In this document: one piece after another, positions 1,663 through 11,052 of the stretch | Layout: every line of letters starts with the position of its first letter | How positions within the stretch are numbered: the first letter of the stretch is position 1 | Assembly: GCA_028864975.1 (NCBI GenBank) | Contig: JAGWLG010000053.1 | Span: 1-12,075, forward strand | Source: Thermoplasmata archaeon | Lineage (GTDB): Archaea; Thermoplasmatota; Thermoplasmata; Lutacidiplasmatales; UBA184 | Reading direction: 5' to 3' | Length of the DNA stretch: 12,075 bases | The notes under the pieces: generated by a model | Databases searched by the model: none | The model's input: the letters and a program-made list of their open reading frames with translations, nothing else | Told to the model about the DNA's origin: nothing | Position numbers and translations under genes: made by a program

Positions 1663-1682
1663 ACTATATAGTAGAATATAGT
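1663..1682. promoter_or_regulatory. 20-bp operator-like motif, copy A
   Basis: ACTATATAGTAGAATATAGT (ACTAT-N10-ATAGT). 14/20 positions are invariant across this copy and those at 7846-7865 and 8059-8078. 50 bp from the ATG at 1613. Confidence 0.65.
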
Positions 1683-1701: not shown

Positions 1702-2415
1702 TTACGAGGTATCCTGCTCCCGCAGGGCCTTCGTCGGGAGGATACCACGTCCCGGCCCTTCCCCCGTGACCATGTACACGACCCGGTGCCCAATGTTCAC
1801 TGCGTGGTCCGCGATCCGCTCCAGGTGACGGTTGACGAGGACGAGGTGGGCCCCGACCTCCGGATCGAGCGTGCGGTCCTTCATCGCTTGCACGAGCTCC
1901 TTGAAGACCTTGTCGTGGAGGTCGTCCACGGAGTCGTCGAACTTCGAGATGTCTTTGACCGACTCGGCGTCGCGGGTCGTGAAGGCTCGGATCGCGGTGT
2001 CCAGCATGTGGATCGTGAGGTCACCCATCCGGATCAGGTCCGCCAGTTGAGGGTGATCCCCCATCTCCAGCTTTCGCAGCCCCTCTTCGGCCTCGGTGAT
2101 ATCGCGAGCGTACCGACCGACCCGGTCAAGGTCGGTGGTGATCCCCAAGCAGGTTGTGATGGTCCGCAGGTCCTTCGCGACCGGGGCGTGGAGGGCGATC
2201 AGGTCGACGCAGGTCTTCTCGACCGCCAGCTGGAGTCCGTAGATCTCCTTGTCCAGCGTCGCAACCTCCTCGGCCTCCGCGGCCTCCTTGCGATGAAGGT
2301 CATCCATCGCCTTTCGGATGGCAAGCTCCGCAAGGTCGGCGAGCGTCCGGACATCCTCGTTCAACCTGTCCAGTCCTTGTGCGAGTGCCTTTCGTTGGAC
2401 CCCCGTGCTCTTCAT
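1702..2415 (-). CDS. phoU: Phosphate signalling complex protein PhoU
   Basis: Two PhoU repeats ([25 protein letters not shown]; [28 protein letters not shown]). ATGA overlap with pstB; GGGGAGGT RBS at 2427-2420. Confidence 0.95.
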
Positions 2416-3368
2416 CCGAACCTCCCCGTGATGTAGTTCTCCGTCAACTTCTCCCGTGGCTGTTCGAAGATACGCTTGGTCGAGTCGAACTCGATCAGAC
2501 GACCCTGGTACATGAACGCCGTGAGATCCGCGACACGCGCAGCCTGCTGCATGTTGTGCGTAACGATGACGACGGTGTAGTCGTTCTTGAGCTCGAAGAT
2601 CAGGTCCTCGACCCGTTGGGTCCCGACCGGGTCCAGGCTGGACGTGGGTTCGTCCATCAGGAGCACCCGAGGGCTGACGGCCAGGGCCCTGGCGATGCAG
2701 AGACGCTGCTGTTGACCCCCCGACAGGGTCAGAGCCGGTAGGTCGAGCGACCCCTTCACCTCGTCCCAGAGACCGGTCCGGTGGAGGGCGGAGACCACCG
2801 TCTTTTCGATGACCTCCTCGGACTCGCCATCCAGGCGCAGGCCGAAAGCCACGTTCTCGTAGACCGAGGTGGGGAATACCGTCGGGCGCTGGAAGACCAT
2901 GCCGATCCTACGCCGTACCAGGACGGGGTTCACCTGAGCGTCATAGATGTCGCGCCCCTGGTAGAGGACCTTACCCTTGACCCGAAGGGCGTGCAGTTCC
3001 ACCATCCGGTTCATCGAGCGCAGAAGGGTCGTCTTCCCGCACCCCGAGGGCCCGATGATGGCGGTGACCTTGCCTTCAGGGATGTCCAGGCTCACGTCAC
3101 TGATGAGTGGCTTGGCCTTCGCGAGGACGGAAAGTCCCTGGACCGAGAGAATCCCCCCCGCGCTCCCTGGTCGCGCGACCGACGAGACCGGCGGGGCCGA
3201 CTCCGAGGTCCCGACCGGGAGCGTGGTGCCACAGAAGGAGCAGCGGAAGGGCCCGGAGGGGAAGCCGGGCGGTACAGACGTCCCACACTTTGGGCAGAGA
3301 AGGACCGAGACCTCCTTCGTTGGAGCGGCCGAGGCGACATGCACCGGCGCTCGCCGATCCGGGCTCAT
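2412..3368 (-). CDS. pstB: Phosphate ABC transporter ATPase PstB with an N-terminal C4 zinc-ribbon extension
   Basis: Walker [28 protein letters not shown], signature [15 protein letters not shown], Walker [23 protein letters not shown] and terminal YITGRFG. ATGA overlap with pstA. Confidence 0.97.
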
Positions 3369-4264
3369 TCGTAGATCCCCGCGAGGCGCTGCCGGTACCG
3401 ATCAGAGAGTACCTGGACCACGATGTTGATTACGAGCACGATGACGATGAGGAGGAAGGCGGCCTGGAACGCCAACGTCAAGAAGGTCCCGTACGACCTC
3501 GGGAAGTCGTAGAATGCCCAAATCCCTCCGGTCAGGAAGGCCGTAGGCTGCATGAGGTTCTGGACCGGTGTCGAACTCCAGCCCGCGGTGTAGACCAGCG
3601 GAGCTGCCTCTCCGAGCCCCAACGCCATGGCGAAGAAGATCCCCGTGAGGATCGTCGGAAAGGCGATCGGGAACGCGACGCGACGCAAGTACTGGATCCG
3701 ATTGGAACCCAACGCGAGGGAAGCTTCGCGTTGGCTCGGGGGGACGTTCGAGAGGGCGATGTCGGTGGTACGGAAGATGTACGGCAGCATGAAAATGCCG
3801 AGGATGATCCCTCCAGCGAGGGTCGTGAACCCCCAGTGGGTATAGAGGACGAGGGCGTAGTAGCCGAAGTATCCCAGGACGATCGCCGGAACGCCCGCGA
3901 GCACGTTGCCCGCCAACCGCGCGAGCCTTCGGACGGGGGGCGGGGCGAACTCCGCGGTGTAGAACCCGGCGGAGATGCCTAGTCCTGCTGCGATCGCCGT
4001 TCCGAGCGAGATCAACACCAGCGTCCCCACGATCATGGCGTAGAGGCCGCCGCTCTCCCCCACCTGATTCTCTGTCAGGACCGACCAGGACATGGTGGGG
4101 AGAGCATAGGACGAGACCCACCCGACGAGGTCGAAAAGGGGGAAGAGCACGGCGACAAAGGCGAGAAGCAGGACCCACCCAATGACCCGATCGAAGAGGA
4201 TCCTGCGCCGCAGACGTCCTGACGTTGGAACCAGGTCGCTCCCGAAGCTCGCTGGAGTCTTCAT
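3365..4264 (-). CDS. pstA: Phosphate ABC transporter permease PstA
   Basis: [32 protein letters not shown] (EAA loop), [13 protein letters not shown] overlap with pstC; GGAGGTG RBS at 4275-4269. Confidence 0.93.
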
Positions 4265-5310: not shown

Positions 5311-6555
5311 TCAGTTGCTGATCGGGACCGCCTCCAGAGCCTGCGTGTCGTACCCTATGACGGCCGCGGTCAGGGGCAGGAACGAGACCTTGGACGCGTA
5401 CGCCCCACCATAGGCCAACGCCCACTCGAGGAAGGTCACGACGTCCTTCATGTGGGACTGGCTCGCTGGCGAGGAAGATATTAGCAGATACTCGAGGTTC
5501 GTGTCCGGGTAGGGGGACGGATAGGCCGAACTGGCGAGGGTACCCCCTGCGCCGAGGACGAGGTTCGTCGCTCCGGGAACCCCTCCCAGGATGAGACTGA
5601 TGGCGACGCTGGGAGGCTGCAGGTTCTGCAGGCCGAGATTGGCGTCCTGGCTGACCGTGTAGGCAGAAGGCAGGATGTAGTTCTGCTGGCCGGCCCCGCC
5701 CGAGCCAACCACCCCGTTCACGTTCGCGTTCTGATCGCCGAGGGCGGCGTAGGCCAGACCGGCCGTCGCGTTGATCTGCGTGAGGTAGCTGATGCCGATG
5801 TACGCCACCCCATACTGTGTGTTCCCCAGGAGGGTGACCATCCCGGAGTTCCCCGTGGCGGACGGCCCCACCGGCCAGGTAATCGTCGTGCCGTAGTTCT
5901 GGCCCCACCCCTTCCAGGAGAGGAAGCACAGCGAGCTGAACATGAACGTGTCTCCGCTGCCATCCGCCCGATGAATCGGCACGATCGCGTTCGACGGGAG
6001 CGTGACGCCAGGGTTGGCGGCCTGGATGAGCGGGTCGTTCCAGTGGGTGATTGCGCCCTGGTAGATCATCGCCAGAACCGACCCATTGAGGTTCAGGTGG
6101 GACGAGATGCCCGGGAGATTGTAAACGACCAACTGGGACGAGATAGCGATCGGGAAGTTGACCAGATTGTGCGAGGTCGCTGTGCTCGGGATCAGGTAGG
6201 CGTCCGTGCCGCCCATGTCGACCGTCCCGGCCTCGGCAGAGCTGATGCCGGTCCCGCTTCCCGTGCTCGCGGGTGAGAGCGCGATGTTAGGGTATACGGC
6301 AGTAAACGCTGGCGATAGGACCTGCAGGTACGGATAGATCAGCGAAGATCCGGTCTCAGAGATTGTAGTTGTCTTGGCCCCACCCGTTGAGTTGGGCATG
6401 GCGTACTTGGTGATGGCATACCCCGCCCCTATGCCCACGATCAGGAGCAGGACCCCCAGCCCGAGGGCTGCGCCCTTGGACATCGTGGAGCTCTTTCTCC
6501 GGACCGTTCCCCCGGAGAGGTCATCGTTCGGTCGGGTGGCTTGGCTGCTGGTCAT
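5311..6555 (-). CDS. pstS: Phosphate-binding protein PstS with N-terminal membrane anchor
   Basis: Hydrophobic segment GAALGLGVLLLIVGIGAGYAIT, then ETGSSLIYP, STGSGTGI, IYQGAITHWNDP, HRADGSGDT. AAGGAGG RBS at 6571-6565. Confidence 0.95.
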   Translation of the reverse strand: MTSSQATRPNDDLSGGTVRRKSSTMSKGAALGLGVLLLIVGIGAGYAITKYAMPNSTGGAKTTTISETGSSLIYPYLQVLSPAFTAVYPNIALSPASTGSGTGISSAEAGTVDMGGTDAYLIPSTATSHNLVNFPIAISSQLVVYNLPGISSHLNLNGSVLAMIYQGAITHWNDPLIQAANPGVTLPSNAIVPIHRADGSGDTFMFSSLCFLSWKGWGQNYGTTITWPVGPSATGNSGMVTLLGNTQYGVAYIGISYLTQINATAGLAYAALGDQNANVNGVVGSGGAGQQNYILPSAYTVSQDANLGLQNLQPPSVAISLILGGVPGATNLVLGAGGTLASSAYPSPYPDTNLEYLLISSSPASQSHMKDVVTFLEWALAYGGAYASKVSFLPLTAAVIGYDTQALEAVPISN

Positions 6556-6580
6556 GCGTTCTTTCCTCCTTGGTTTGGGA

Positions 6581-7792
6581 TCATGGTATGCCCTGGGATC
6601 CTAGGTGGCCGCCTTTCTGGGCCCGTCCAGACGTGGCAAAGGGAGGCGATCGTTGGAGAGCAGAAGGTCGTGGGACATCCGTACCCCTTCCGCCCGGGAC
6701 GTGCACCCATTCGAGGGCAGCCCGATCGAGGCAGAGTTCGGCGATGTCCGCAACGTAGGCTGCCGAGCGATCGATGGAATCCAGGACCTGTGCGATCCAC
6801 GCCGCGGTGAGAGGTGGGATCTGCGACGGGGCCTTCCGCGAGAGAAGATTCTGGAGCAGGGCCATGTGGCTTGCGTGAAGCGATCCTGCGGTGTCCGCGA
6901 TCTCGTTCGAGGCTTGCGCGTCGGGCCGGCTGATCAAGGGGATGGCCCGTTCTAGAAGCTCCAACACCTGTCCATAGAACTCGACGACCGAGGGAAGGCG
7001 AGGGGGATGGGAGCCTGTTCGAGGAAGGCTGGCAGAGGCCCGTCCGATTCGGACCGCGTGGTCGCCAATCCGCTCGAGGGCACGAGACGTCGCGAGAAGA
7101 TGCAGAGCGGACGATGCACCATTCGGGAGGATGGTCTCCGCTGGCTCGCGCAGGAATTGGGCGGCGAGCGTTCGATGGAGGCGCCACTCCAGCCGGTCGA
7201 TCTCGTCGTCCTGACCCTCCCAGTACGAGTCGTCCTCCGTCGTAGGAGCTTGCGTAAGGCACTCTCTCGCACGCGACTGAAGCTCGAGCACCCCCCGAGC
7301 CATTCGTACGACGACGGCGACCGGGTCCGATGGGCCGTCTCCCGAGATGTCGCGGAGCGAGATGGCCGAGGATCCCTCCGAGACCACCTCCATTCGTCCG
7401 CTTCGTCGAGCGAACTCACGGACCGTTCTCGTGGCCTCCTTGGACAACCCGCTTGGGAAGGTCAGGACCAGGTCGGTGGTGCCTGTGAGATATGCTGCAA
7501 CCAGACATCGAAAGAGATGCTCGAGCGGCTCCGACCCACCCACGTGCAGGGCGGCCTCCCAGCCTTTCCCACTCGCTCGCACGTCCTCTAGGAGCAGTCG
7601 GCCAGGCCCGGCGTCGTGTACTCGGAGGCTGCCCCCCTGTTCGAGTCCGTTGCTACGGATCCACACGCGGGGAATCGAAACCACAACTTCGCCCTTTCCC
7701 GAGCGACGCAGATGCCTTACGACCTCCCGGCCCCCTCCTTCGATTCCCGCTCGGGGCTCTGAGGGCACCTCGACCATCATCTCGCTCCACAT
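6581..7792 (-). CDS. Archaeal phosphate-uptake regulator: N-terminal AbrB/SpoVT DNA-binding domain plus two PhoU-like domains (COG0704-type)
   Basis: RHLRRSGKGEVVVSIPRVWIRSNGLEQG (AbrB-like), CLVAAYLTG, QDDEIDRLEW, ALERIGDHAVRIG, IDRSAAYVADIAE. The start may be 7780 (GGAG at 7788-7785). Confidence 0.88.
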   Translation of the reverse strand: MWSEMMVEVPSEPRAGIEGGGREVVRHLRRSGKGEVVVSIPRVWIRSNGLEQGGSLRVHDAGPGRLLLEDVRASGKGWEAALHVGGSEPLEHLFRCLVAAYLTGTTDLVLTFPSGLSKEATRTVREFARRSGRMEVVSEGSSAISLRDISGDGPSDPVAVVVRMARGVLELQSRARECLTQAPTTEDDSYWEGQDDEIDRLEWRLHRTLAAQFLREPAETILPNGASSALHLLATSRALERIGDHAVRIGRASASLPRTGSHPPRLPSVVEFYGQVLELLERAIPLISRPDAQASNEIADTAGSLHASHMALLQNLLSRKAPSQIPPLTAAWIAQVLDSIDRSAAYVADIAELCLDRAALEWVHVPGGRGTDVPRPSALQRSPPFATSGRAQKGGHLGSQGIP

Positions 7793-7845: not shown

Positions 7846-7865
7846 ACTATAGTCCACCACATAGA
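7846..7865. promoter_or_regulatory. 20-bp operator-like motif, copy B
   Basis: The minus strand reads TCTATGTGGTGGACTATAGT; 14 bp upstream of the TATA box. Confidence 0.7.
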
Positions 7866-8058: not shown

Positions 8059-8078
8059 ACTATGTAGTTCACTATAGT
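8059..8078. promoter_or_regulatory. 20-bp operator-like motif, copy C
   Basis: ACTATGTAGTTCACTATAGT; 15 bp upstream of a weak TATA-like TTATCTT (8094-8100) and 45 bp from ATG 8123. Confidence 0.7.
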
Positions 8079-8122: not shown

Positions 8123-10234
8123 ATGGCGGACGAACCGGCTCGTGAAGTGGTCTCCATCCCGACGATGCGGACCGCGGCGCGAGAGCAGCGGAAGATCCTC
8201 GCTGCCCTGGATTCGAGCAGGACCAAGTCCTTCCATCTCAAGACCATCGTCATCGCGGGAATGGGGTTCTACTCCGATGCGTACGACCTCTTCGTCATCT
8301 CGATGGTCCTCCCGATCCTGGCGTTCCTACCTGGAACCGGCGCGACCTCGAAGTTCGAAGTGTCGGCCCTGGCGGCCGCCGCGCTCTTCGGGGCCGTGGC
8401 CGGACAGGTGTTCTTCGGATTCCTCGCGGACAAGTTCGGCCGAAAGAGGATCTATTCCGTGACGCTCTCCGTCATGGTCGTTGGCGCGATTGGGAGCGCG
8501 CTTTCGGGCCCGTTCATGGGCATGAACCTCGTCATGGTTCTCGTGCTCTGGCGATTCCTACTCGGCTTCGGGGTAGGAGGGGATTATCCGCTGTCGGCCA
8601 CCATCATGAGCGAGTACAGCAACGTTCGCAATCGAGGACGCCTGGTGGCGAGCGTCTTTGCCATGCAAGGTTTCGGGCTCTTGACCGGGGCCTGCGTAGC
8701 GCTCGTAACCATCGTGGCCTTCCCAAACAACTTGGATCTGGTCTGGCGAAGTGTCCTGGCGTTCGGTGCGGTTCCCGCGCTCGCCACCATCTACTTCAGG
8801 ACCAAGATGCCGGAGACGCCCCGGTTCCAGCTCGCAGTTAGTCACGACACTAAGTCCGCAGCACGCACCGTCTCAGCGCTCACCGGGACGTCGGCTACCG
8901 CGCAGGTTTCTGGGACACGCTCTTCGACGAACATTCGGGTCCCACTTCGGACCTTCTTCGTCAACTATGGTCCGGTTCTCTTCGGAACAGCGGCGTGCTG
9001 GTTCCTCCTGGACATCGCATTCTACTTCTCGAACATCTTCAATCCGACGGTCCTGACCCACATCGGTTTCGTGACGAAGGGACTGCCAACCCACCAGGTC
9101 GTCCTCAACCTCGCCGAGGGGAACATCCTGATCGCGGTGTTCGCGACGGTCCCTGGATACTGGGCTGCGGTGGCCCTCATCGACCGGTGGGGCCGACGTG
9201 GATTGCAGATCCTGGGGTTCGGGGTGATGGCGATCTCCTTCACCTTCCTCGCCGTCTTCTACAACGAGCTTCTTGCGACATCGCTCCTGTTCTTCCTCGT
9301 GGTCTACGCTACCACGTTCTTCTTCGCGAACTTCGGGCCCAACACGACCACTTTCGTGATCCCTAGCGAGGTCTATCCGACACAGTTCCGAGGGACCGGG
9401 CACGGGATCTCCGCGGCGTCCGGGAAGATGGGCGCCGCGATCGCCACGTTCTTCCTCCCGCTCTTCGTGTTGAGCGATGGGCTCCCGGCAACCCTGATGG
9501 TCCTCGCCGGCGTCTCCTTCCTAGGCTTCCTGATCTCCTTGGCGGTGACTCCAGAGACCGCCGGCCGGGCGCTCGAGGACGTCTCGAGAGAGGACGAGCT
9601 CCACCTCATGGTGGAACGGTTCTCGGGCCACCTCGAGGGGCTCGTTGACGCGGTGAAGCTCGGGGCCATCGAGCTGAAGATGCTCCTGGACAACCCGCCC
9701 ACGGAACAGGCCGTGCGGATCACCCGAATTCGAGCCATCGAGCATAGCGCCGACGAGGCGGTCCACCAAGTCTACGTTGACCTCAACAACAAGGTGATGA
9801 AGAGCCAGGTCCGCTCGGACGTCGGCGCCCTGGCGTCGCACATCGACGACATCATGGACGGGATCGAGAGCGTCTCCGCCCGAATGCAGACCTACCATTT
9901 CACCGAGAGCAACGCCGAGCTCCGACGGTTCGCGGACATCGTGGTCCAGTGCGTTGACCAGGTGGGGGTTGGGATCCGGGCGCTCGACCGGCTCTTGCAG
10001 GGCGAGAACCAAGAGCTCCAGAGGGCCATCATCGAGGTCAACCGCTTGGAGAACGAGGCGGACGACCTGCTGCGGGTCCTGCTAGAACGCTTGTTCAACG
10101 ACTCGAAGGACCCTGTCGAGATCCTGAAGCTCAAAGACCTCTACGAGCGCCTTGAGGTCATCACTGACCGATGCGAGGACGTGACCGATGTGTTCCAGGA
10201 CCTGATGGTCCGTTACGTCCAGACCTCGACCTGA
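8123..10234 (+). CDS. MFS phosphate:H+ symporter (PHS family, PHO84/PHT1-like, aa ~1-490) fused to a C-terminal DUF47/PhoU-like domain (aa ~495-703)
   Basis: IVIAGMGFYSDAYDLF, GVGGDYPLSATIMSEY, FAMQGFG, MPETPRF, WFLLDIAFY, NFGPNTTTFVIPSEVYPTQFRGTGHGISAASGK, PETAGRALED. Then AIEHSADEAVH, HIDDIMDGIE, LENEADDL, LKDLYERLEVITDRCEDV. One continuous frame. Confidence 0.93.
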   Translation: MADEPAREVVSIPTMRTAAREQRKILAALDSSRTKSFHLKTIVIAGMGFYSDAYDLFVISMVLPILAFLPGTGATSKFEVSALAAAALFGAVAGQVFFGFLADKFGRKRIYSVTLSVMVVGAIGSALSGPFMGMNLVMVLVLWRFLLGFGVGGDYPLSATIMSEYSNVRNRGRLVASVFAMQGFGLLTGACVALVTIVAFPNNLDLVWRSVLAFGAVPALATIYFRTKMPETPRFQLAVSHDTKSAARTVSALTGTSATAQVSGTRSSTNIRVPLRTFFVNYGPVLFGTAACWFLLDIAFYFSNIFNPTVLTHIGFVTKGLPTHQVVLNLAEGNILIAVFATVPGYWAAVALIDRWGRRGLQILGFGVMAISFTFLAVFYNELLATSLLFFLVVYATTFFFANFGPNTTTFVIPSEVYPTQFRGTGHGISAASGKMGAAIATFFLPLFVLSDGLPATLMVLAGVSFLGFLISLAVTPETAGRALEDVSREDELHLMVERFSGHLEGLVDAVKLGAIELKMLLDNPPTEQAVRITRIRAIEHSADEAVHQVYVDLNNKVMKSQVRSDVGALASHIDDIMDGIESVSARMQTYHFTESNAELRRFADIVVQCVDQVGVGIRALDRLLQGENQELQRAIIEVNRLENEADDLLRVLLERLFNDSKDPVEILKLKDLYERLEVITDRCEDVTDVFQDLMVRYVQTST

Positions 10235-10429: not shown

Positions 10430-10441
10430 TATTTACCTTTC
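10430..10441 (-). promoter_or_regulatory. Putative BRE/TATA of tRNA-Asn, overlapping the stop codon of the upstream gene
   Basis: GAAAGG-TAAATA on the minus strand; TAAATA ends 27 nt before tRNA position 1, and its TAA is the stop at 10435-10433. Confidence 0.55.
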
Positions 10442-10849
10442 CCGTCGGGAGCCCGCCGCCACAGCCCTCGGCACGGGGGCGACCGCCATGGGGGCATTCT
10501 TCGCCCGGAACCCCGCGGCCCTGTCCTTCAGATGCTGGATGATGCTGTTCATCTGGTCGAGCGATCGGTCGAGGTCCCGCCAGAACTCCTTCGACTTCTC
10601 CGTCACCACGGCGCCTTCCGCCGAGGGCTCAATGACCCCCTGTCGCTCGAGCAGGTGGAGCGAGTACCGGACCTTGTGAATAGGGAGCTTGAGCGCTTCC
10701 GATAGGCGGATGATGCCCATGGGGTGATTGTCGGAGAGGCGCTCCAAGATGTCGACGTTACGGGCGAGGAGCTCGAGCTCCGCGAGGATCCTGTCGACAA
10801 GGATCGTGCCCTCAACTTCGTCTTGGACCGGCTCTTCAGGGTTTGGCAT
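10433..10849 (-). CDS. Predicted winged-HTH transcriptional regulator, euryarchaeal COG3388-like, 138 aa
   Basis: ELELLARNVDILERL..PMGIIRLSEAL.LPIHKVRYSLHLLERQGVIEPSAEGA matches, from memory, the family pattern (PIGIVKLS..P.HKVRYSLR.LE...IEPS..GA). Start moved to MPNPEE at 10849 (AAGGTG RBS at 10859-10854; ATTAAATA at 10889-10882). Confidence 0.8.
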   Translation of the reverse strand: MPNPEEPVQDEVEGTILVDRILAELELLARNVDILERLSDNHPMGIIRLSEALKLPIHKVRYSLHLLERQGVIEPSAEGAVVTEKSKEFWRDLDRSLDQMNSIIQHLKDRAAGFRAKNAPMAVAPVPRAVAAGSRRER

Positions 10850-11052
10850 GCTACACCTTGTCCGAACGAGGGTTTCGCCGGTATTTAATGGGTTGTTCAT
10901 CCGGTGCTGACCCAAAAGTGGTGCATGCCAGGGGTTCCCACCACCGGGTGGACGCGCTCAGCCTCCCACATTCGTCGGTGGGATCTCGAATCCCTCCTCC
11001 CCATCGGCAGAGAGAGCGGACGGGCTCGCGCCACACGGGAATCGGAGGTATG

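Follow-up and report, generated by a model that had tools for sequence, protein, structure and literature searches.

Why would an archaeal phosphate transporter carry, on the same polypeptide, a domain from a family of phosphate accessory proteins, and what might that domain do there? The question is raised by a stretch of DNA from a Thermoplasmata archaeon (hereafter the window, which is the entire 12,075-bp contig C100 of a 3.6-Mb genome, G000, assembled in 124 contigs and 89.6% complete), in which a single gene, P0001, encodes a carrier of the PHS family of phosphate:H+ symporters that runs on into a DUF47 (PhoU_div, PF01865) domain. Bacteria pair their phosphate importers with accessories of their own, namely PhoU with the ATP-binding cassette (ABC) importer Pst, PitR, which consists of one PF01865 domain, with PitA, and, in NptA, a built-in PhoU domain, each of them serving its cognate importer only (PMC13170248). 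The archaeal protein is a fourth putative accessory-importer pairing, in which a PHS carrier contains a domain of the PitR type. Both halves come from known families, and the fusion of a transporter with an accessory module has a precedent in NptA. It is probable, judging from the features described below, that the DUF47 domain acts in cis as a regulatory accessory of an active phosphate importer.

One reading frame for two phosphate proteins

The gene occupies one open reading frame (ORF) of 703 codons with one stop (8123-10234), whose parts are arranged as follows (aa, amino acids; TM, transmembrane).

8123..10234, + strand: fused gene P0001, 703 aa, PHS-type major facilitator superfamily (MFS) phosphate:H+ symporter with C-terminal DUF47/PhoU_div
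8270..9589, + strand: MFS transporter domain of 12 TM helices, matched over residues 50-489 by Pfam Sugar_tr (E 1.8e-50)
9551..9622, + strand: junction PET..R.LEDVS.EDEL...V.RFS, residues 477-500, after TM12
9608..9610, + strand: in-frame ATG, M496, a proposed internal start that would yield 208 aa
9620..10204, + strand: DUF47/PhoU_div domain, PF01865 at residues 500-694 (E 1.5e-20)

MFS_1 is also matched in the transporter half, and PF01865 is recognized at 73.9 bits against a cut-off of 24.4, from position 13 to position 211 of a 214-position profile; the genome contains no other PF01865 match. The reading frame and the Pfam domain limits bear out the original prediction, made from the sequence letters, of an MFS part followed by DUF47 in a single frame of 703 codons. 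Pfam finds in this protein no SPX domain (PF03105, E <= 0.01), and neither PF02690 nor PF01895.

The MFS part ends at PETAGRALEDVSREDE (residues 477-492, nt 9551-9598), with the first helix of DUF47 starting at about residue 491. This end, the ATG at 9608 and the 208-aa length of the product that it would open are all as originally described. The first part of the junction is the usual PETxG..LE C-terminal tail of sugar-porter and PHS carriers, found also in rice PHT1;11, and the whole of this short junction aligns without gaps and is strongly conserved within the window's clade and clusters P0143-P0146; in another fused group (P0154/P0162/P0176) it is six residues shorter. An AlphaFold2 model of the full protein, built on an 86-row alignment, reached a mean predicted local distance difference test (pLDDT) of 92.7 and a predicted template modelling score (pTM) of 0.87; the latter, taken over the whole model, suggests a defined relative pose of the two domains, and with the short, conserved junction it speaks for tight coupling. 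When the two halves were modelled as separate chains, each with its own alignment and with no control pairs, the complex scored 0.00, which speaks neither for nor against docking.

The transporter half and its phosphate site

Among NCBIfam models, TIGR00887 (phosphate:H+ symporter) is by far the best match of the transporter half, and its best solved relative is rice OsPHT1;11 (9kmq; 355 bits, in a single alignment over residues 24-491), followed by the fungal PiPT (7sp5 and variants) at about 257-259 bits; the next family among solved structures, represented by the glucose transporter GlcP, comes at 71 bits only. Foldseek superposes the transporter half of the model on 9kmq and 7sp5 with template modelling scores of 0.82-0.86 (target-normalised).

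Nine PiPT residues, D45, D149, Y150, Q177, W320, D324, Y328, N431 and K459, are those that we take to form the phosphate site and to couple protons, and their numbers are backed by PDB titles naming the Y150A, Y328F, D324E and K459Q variants. The chain numbering of 7sp5 equals the published PiPT numbering plus 2 throughout the alignment, by which the nine fall on D52, D154, Y155, Q182, W293, D297, Y301, N407 and K435 of P0001, respectively, with nine identities out of nine. All nine are invariant across 11 fused proteins that are 38-77% identical (alignment A1). The claim that this is a Pho84/PHT1-type transporter with every listed phosphate-site motif in place is thereby confirmed, and the transporter half looks like a working H+/phosphate symporter, as opposed to a degenerate sensor.

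One distant fused group (P0162 and P0176; alignment A3) departs from this pattern: SGK is replaced by SR, and with it the site lysine, GHG reads AQG, and the linker is the shorter one mentioned above. Going by these replacements, its members may have a different substrate or a different coupling.

The accessory half

Residues 490-703 match a Bacteroides 'PhoU-like phosphate regulatory protein' of solved structure (PDB 3L39, E 3.2e-20), and they are modelled as six long helices of high pLDDT (491-523, 525-555, 561-590, 598-624, 630-660 and 664-698). Fourteen fused domains were aligned with stand-alone DUF47 proteins, 15 of them PiT-linked and 4 ABC-linked, and 18 core residues are common to the fused domains and the 15 PiT-linked proteins, among them the acidic/His positions E540, H541, D544, H548, D566, D575, D576, D579 and E643, together with N644, D647, K671, E675, E678, T681, D682 and D686. 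At several core positions the fused domains are unlike the ABC-linked DUF47. Since the core of the PiT-linked type is retained, the fused domain is of the PitR type with its conserved core intact; Bacillus subtilis YkaA and the rhizobial 'Pit accessory protein' are, we presume, relatives of the same type.

Reality and spread of the fusion

The best 120 matches of the protein in a collection of 5.8 billion proteins all carry both Pfam families (120/120) in 650-766 aa, under automatic names such as 'MFS transporter [Thermoplasmata archaeon]' or 'PHS family inorganic phosphate transporter', and with the DUF47 part alone as query every longer protein found has the same architecture. Among 1.84 billion cluster representatives searched with HMMER, about nine clusters at 50% identity match over the full length of the query, and the others among the best 150 are unfused PHS carriers. 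A scan of one genome per prokaryotic species, with a check of the frame, placed both parts in one open frame in 50 species genomes, and the fused frame is continuous in more than 140 protein clusters.

By record titles, the fused carriers include many from Thermoplasmata/Thermoplasmatales, three from Micrarchaeota, three from Marsarchaeota, four from Nitrososphaerota/Thaumarchaeota, one from 'Thermoproteati' and several from unclassified archaea, and one fused cluster is labelled Thermoprotei. All fused genomes are metagenome-assembled or belong to uncultured isolates; the cultured Sulfolobales of the same scan match the transporter part only. Two Marsarchaeota records (L067, L068) have apparently truncated frames. 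A bacterial candidate (L081) was discarded, having no MFS match and consisting of a stand-alone DUF47 near a contig end, and so was an apparent split form in archaeon UBA168 (L073), whose break lies at an NN scaffold gap with duplicated flanks. That gap is the only break of the frame found among relatives, for which the original prediction had named a stop or frameshift at the junction as the outcome that would tell against it. Might the two genes nevertheless have been joined artificially, by a frameshift, by read-through of a stop or by a chimeric assembly? The continuous frame in 50 independent species genomes and over 140 clusters, together with the conserved junction, excludes an assembly or sequencing artefact; nothing was found in favour of one, and its probability is practically nil.

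The original prediction would also have been weakened if the architecture were already common and described. It is indeed common among uncultured archaea, but no paper describing the fusion was found among open-access papers and preprints.

Repeated gain, loss or exchange of the domain

The fused transporter halves do not fall together on a tree of the MFS part (89 rows, the best 89 representatives; unrooted, drawn at its midpoint), where they are interleaved with unfused carriers. Forcing them into one clade costs 241 log-likelihood units, with a p-value of about 1e-80 in the approximately unbiased (AU) test, and a single clade was rejected. For the short DUF47 alignment a single clade of fused domains is not rejected (AU p-value 0.29). 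The domain would thus appear to have been acquired on more than one occasion, to have been lost several times, or to have been exchanged. The window's own clade has as its sister group a large assemblage with plant, glaucophyte and chytrid PHS proteins among its members (44-47% identity), and stands apart from other archaeal and bacterial PHS carriers.

The original prediction had taken the joint for two merged genes. No adjacent two-gene precursor, with an MFS gene followed by a DUF47 gene, was found among the loci examined, where the one apparent split form is the scaffold gap of L073.

The partners of DUF47 in other genomes

With which transporters does DUF47 associate when it stands alone? 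All 18 bacterial DUF47 loci of the scan encode a stand-alone protein, and in 17 of them a PiT/PHO4 gene directly follows. Among 40 relatives of the window's genome, compared for PiT and DUF47, four (G031, G033, G038 and G039) have a canonical PiT (318-392 bits) with an adjoining stand-alone DUF47 and no fusion. In the 13 fused genomes of the window's family (f1), on the other hand, the single PF01865 match is the fusion, and no canonical PiT was detected, weak PiT-like matches being confined to G000 and G011; as these genomes are related and partly incomplete, the absence of PiT is to be read as a pattern and not as a statistic. It has been proposed that Pho84-like carriers replace PitA in acidophiles without pitA (PMC5859850), which would fit a switch of partner from PiT to PHS.

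Four other Thermoplasmata lineages show a further arrangement, in which a stand-alone DUF47 gene comes last in an operon that encodes a double BPD_transp_1 permease and two ATPases of an ABC importer.

L105 1496-6018; L109 5479-10022; L107 5672-10900; L018 818-5624: ABC-operon DUF47 loci of sister Thermoplasmata lineages

DUF47 as a stand-alone partner of PiT, which the original prediction regarded as the normal state outside this gene, therefore holds for the 17 bacterial loci and the four archaeal genomes, but not as an exclusive bond, given the ABC-linked copies of the sister lineages. Within one archaeal class the domain is found with transporters of three classes, and it behaves as a movable accessory module.

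Two further observations concern the neighbourhood of these genes. Two NCBI assemblies have a three-gene cluster on one strand (L019/L020 2130-5458), with DUF47, then PiT and directly after it an unfused PHS gene, this PHS gene being sister to a fused one on the MFS tree. The sole PiT-like gene of G000 (contig C20, 6889-7752; L002 1450-2418) is divergent, at 133-138 bits against 318-392 for canonical PiT, and adjoins methyltransferase and dual-specificity phosphatase genes, with no DUF47 beside it.

The phosphate locus and its shared box

The fused gene is divergent from a set of phosphate-acquisition genes on the reverse strand (HTH, helix-turn-helix).

6581..7792, - strand: P0142, 403 aa, AbrB/SpoVT-like N-terminus and PhoU domain; candidate transcriptional regulator, divergent from the fused gene and heading the pst operon
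5311-6555, - strand: pstS, first of the pst genes of the high-affinity ABC phosphate importer operon, after P0142
4261-5283, - strand: pstC, pst operon
3365-4264, - strand: pstA, pst operon
2412-3368, - strand: pstB, pst operon
1702-2415, - strand: phoU, canonical PhoU, pst operon
1170-1661, - strand: ORF without clear family, after phoU and behind the third box copy
8060..8078, + strand: box copy CTATGTAGTTCACTATAGT, 45-63 nt upstream of the fused-gene ATG; candidate promoter/operator
7846..7864, - strand: box copy CTATGTGGTGGACTATAGT, 54-72 nt upstream of the AbrB-PhoU gene
1664..1682, + strand: box copy CTATATAGTAGAATATAGT, just past the 3' end of phoU
10433..10915, - strand: small HTH-like ORF, 160 aa, no clear family, downstream of the fused gene; syntenic in same-genus relatives

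Between the two divergent genes, in a region of 330 bp, a 19-nt box is present as an inverted pair, with one copy about 50 nt 5' of each start codon. With up to two mismatches allowed, the box CTATRTRGTNNAMTATAGT has three copies in the 3.6-Mb genome, all of them in this phosphate locus, and a reversed-pattern control has none; both intergenic copies are kept in the same-genus relatives L022 and L024. The box is a candidate operator or promoter element of a small Pho regulon, and being shared and restricted to this locus it makes it very probable that the fused gene is co-regulated with the Pst system. The AbrB-PhoU product may bind the box. P0142 is homologous to an AbrB(MazE-type)-PhoU protein encoded beside the fused gene in another family of the class, and such a gene occurs in 17 fused-gene loci, in three arrangements and directly adjoining the fused gene in all but one; at most fused loci outside Thermoplasmata this neighbour is not present. 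No kinase or response regulator is encoded in the window's locus; elsewhere in the genome there are 14 receiver-domain and about 8 HATPase_c matches.

A second PhoU-type gene of the genome lies on contig C115 (90924-91481), and directly downstream of the fused gene of the relative G026 (L013) there is an IS605 OrfB/Cas12f-like (TnpB-type) gene at 6421-7605.

How might the fused domain act?

What is observed is the architecture and how far it is conserved, the residues of the transport site and of the DUF47 core, all intact, the linkage to the pst genes and the box; transport activity, phosphate sensing by DUF47, gating and any signalling to the regulator are inferred. A mechanism can be sketched along these lines. 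The 12-TM half would take up H2PO4- with protons through the same site as PiPT, and the six-helix DUF47 bundle would hang some 15 residues below TM12, right after the PETxG..LE tail, from where its conserved acidic/His motifs could let it read the phosphate status of the cytoplasm, or the transport flux; once phosphate is replete, it would slow or lock the carrier. It may also report to the AbrB-PhoU neighbour, which would act on the box shared by the fused gene and the regulator-pst operon. An accessory module that usually serves PiT would have moved in this way onto a PHS carrier, in lineages that yielded no canonical PiT. A cytoplasmic sensor or gate built into the protein, as originally proposed, would be its most economical reading; direct gating of the carrier by DUF47 specifically is a possible, more tentative part of it.

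Several observations weigh against this reading. Both halves fall below the cut-offs of the corresponding equivalog-level models: the transporter scores 445.3 bits against the equivalog cut-off of 610.3 of TIGR00887, for which reason it is classed as a PHS-family homologue and not equated with the eukaryotic proteins as their equivalog; TIGR00153, with a cut-off of 104.3, gives the DUF47 half 53 bits. A single residue of the transporter half, I305, is restricted to fused forms, so the sequence gives no hint of a docking surface. Since the fused MFS halves do not form one clade, there has been repeated gain or loss of DUF47, and the domain may be dispensable; the fall of pLDDT to 67 at residues 491-500 of the model, together with the shorter linker of one fused group, speaks against one rigid coupling geometry. 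Finally, with two-component systems encoded elsewhere in the genome, a PhoR-like output is possible.

This last point leads to a different view of the protein, in which it would be a 'transceptor' whose DUF47 reports transport status to AbrB-PhoU or to a distant PhoR-like kinase without gating its own carrier. By analogy with Staphylococcus aureus, where PitR and NptA's PhoU domain act on the output of PhoPR (PMC13170248), this has some appeal, and the linkage of the AbrB-PhoU gene to the fused gene in 17 loci, the box common to both divergent promoters and the histidine kinases and receiver domains found elsewhere in the genome all agree with it, as does the use made of the same C-terminal position by other prokaryotic PHS carriers, which bear MCP-signal or GAF-GGDEF(-EAL) output domains there. 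On the opposite side stand the locus, devoid of kinase and response regulator, and the lack of the AbrB-PhoU neighbour at most fused loci outside Thermoplasmata. Reporting of this kind is moreover compatible with gating and does not exclude it, so the two views overlap; signalling alone seems rather unlikely to be the whole role of the domain. The output-domain carriers were seen in P0167, P0187, P0195, P0199 and P0205, with C-terminal MCP-signalling, GAF-GGDEF or GAF-PAS-GGDEF-EAL regions, and one of these clusters includes the cultured Acidithrix sp. C25 (WP_201732677.1); they are possible phosphate 'transceptors' wired to chemotaxis or to cyclic di-GMP.

Could the carrier instead work mainly outward, removing phosphate or metal-phosphate released from polyphosphate, with DUF47 controlling efflux? 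Export has been proposed for Pho84-like genes of Metallosphaera and other acidophiles that lack pitA (PMC5859850), and several carriers belong to lineages or samples linked with acid or mine settings, going by one 'mine drainage metagenome' label and the record titles Micrarchaeota and Marsarchaeota, from which no association with acidophiles is claimed. The gene, however, sits in a phosphate-acquisition locus beside pstSCAB and shares a cis element with it, and the window holds no metal-resistance genes, which leaves export improbable. It is still harder to credit that a start at M496 frees a 208-aa DUF47 for another transporter, for instance the orphan PiT-like gene of contig C20. The in-frame ATG would give a DUF47 of normal size, and that gene is the only PiT-like one of the genome and has no DUF47 neighbour; but it is divergent in score from canonical PiT, and M496 is found only in the window and a same-genus relative, V, L or I taking its place in other fused proteins. 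In the protein database search, complete DUF47 proteins that truly stand alone reach about 35% identity at most; the matches above 56% whose length is near that of the DUF47 part are only fragments of fused proteins. Internal initiation at the ATG of 9608, which the original prediction had allowed for, is therefore not a conserved feature, and two separate products are very improbable; the sequence 5' of this ATG encodes conserved residues, so that no independent start signal can be read from it. The reading retained here is that of DUF47 as a probable accessory domain regulating, in cis, the importer to which it is fused.

Significance and comparison with known systems

The complexes through which PhoU-fold accessories such as PhoU and PitR would sense phosphate flux and communicate with their transporters are transient. 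A PitR-type domain covalently fused to a carrier with close relatives of solved structure (PiPT, OsPHT1;11) offers a stoichiometric and structurally tractable system in which to observe the contact and to examine gating. In the 2026 study of S. aureus, the need of accessory proteins for their cognate importers was shown genetically only, and the accompanying survey of accessories and importers took only single-domain PF01865 proteins (PMC13170248). Added to the three bacterial pairings, the fourth extends the scheme to archaea and provides a prokaryotic counterpart of the SPX-fused carriers of eukaryotes.

The change of partner from PiT to MFS, taken with the ABC-linked DUF47, argues that the module reads a generic cue (phosphate or a common cytoplasmic cue) and not the shape of one transporter. 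One might go further and see in DUF47 a transporter-agnostic phosphate sensor or brake for any importer, used beside PiT, at the end of an ABC operon or fused to PHS, and forming with PhoU and AbrB-PhoU a control circuit made of PhoU folds only, set on the 19-nt box and working without PhoR/PhoB; this larger scheme is speculative and, for now, unlikely. If the transporter-agnostic reading were true, the fusion would be a natural 1:1 covalent complex in which to learn how PhoU-fold proteins read transport.

Compared with known systems, the fused protein is closest in its accessory half to PitR-PitA, with which it shares the domain family, the six-helix fold and the acidic/His core, as well as the logic of one accessory regulator tied to one importer, PitR of S. 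aureus regulating phosphate homeostasis only with its cognate transporter (PMC13170248). PitR, however, is a stand-alone protein of about 205-230 aa encoded next to a PiT/PHO4 gene, whereas the archaeal domain is fused to a 12-TM PHS carrier, and PhoPR, the output partner of PitR, is not in the archaeal locus. The Na+/phosphate cotransporter NptA of S. aureus likewise unites an importer and a PhoU-fold module in one polypeptide, and deletion of its domain alters Pho signalling (PMC13170248); NptA is nonetheless a PF02690 carrier with PF01895, and the archaeal protein an MFS carrier with PF01865, so that the likeness is one of logic only. PhoU of PstSCAB is also a PhoU-fold accessory of a phosphate importer, but it is free-standing, has two PF01895 repeats and serves an ABC importer.

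On the transporter side, PiPT of Piriformospora indica, OsPHT1;11 and yeast Pho84 (PHS, TC 2.A.1.9) are 38-47% identical to the transporter half; these eukaryotic proteins end shortly past the PETxG..LE tail, without DUF47, where the archaeal one continues into it. SPX carriers (yeast Pho87, Pho90 and Pho91, plant SPX-MFS/VPT) carry a helical sensor domain, fused on the cytoplasmic side, by which transport is held back in line with the phosphate status of the cell. Their resemblance to the archaeal carrier is a functional analogy, as SPX has an unrelated fold, recognizes inositol pyrophosphates and in most cases sits at the N-terminus.

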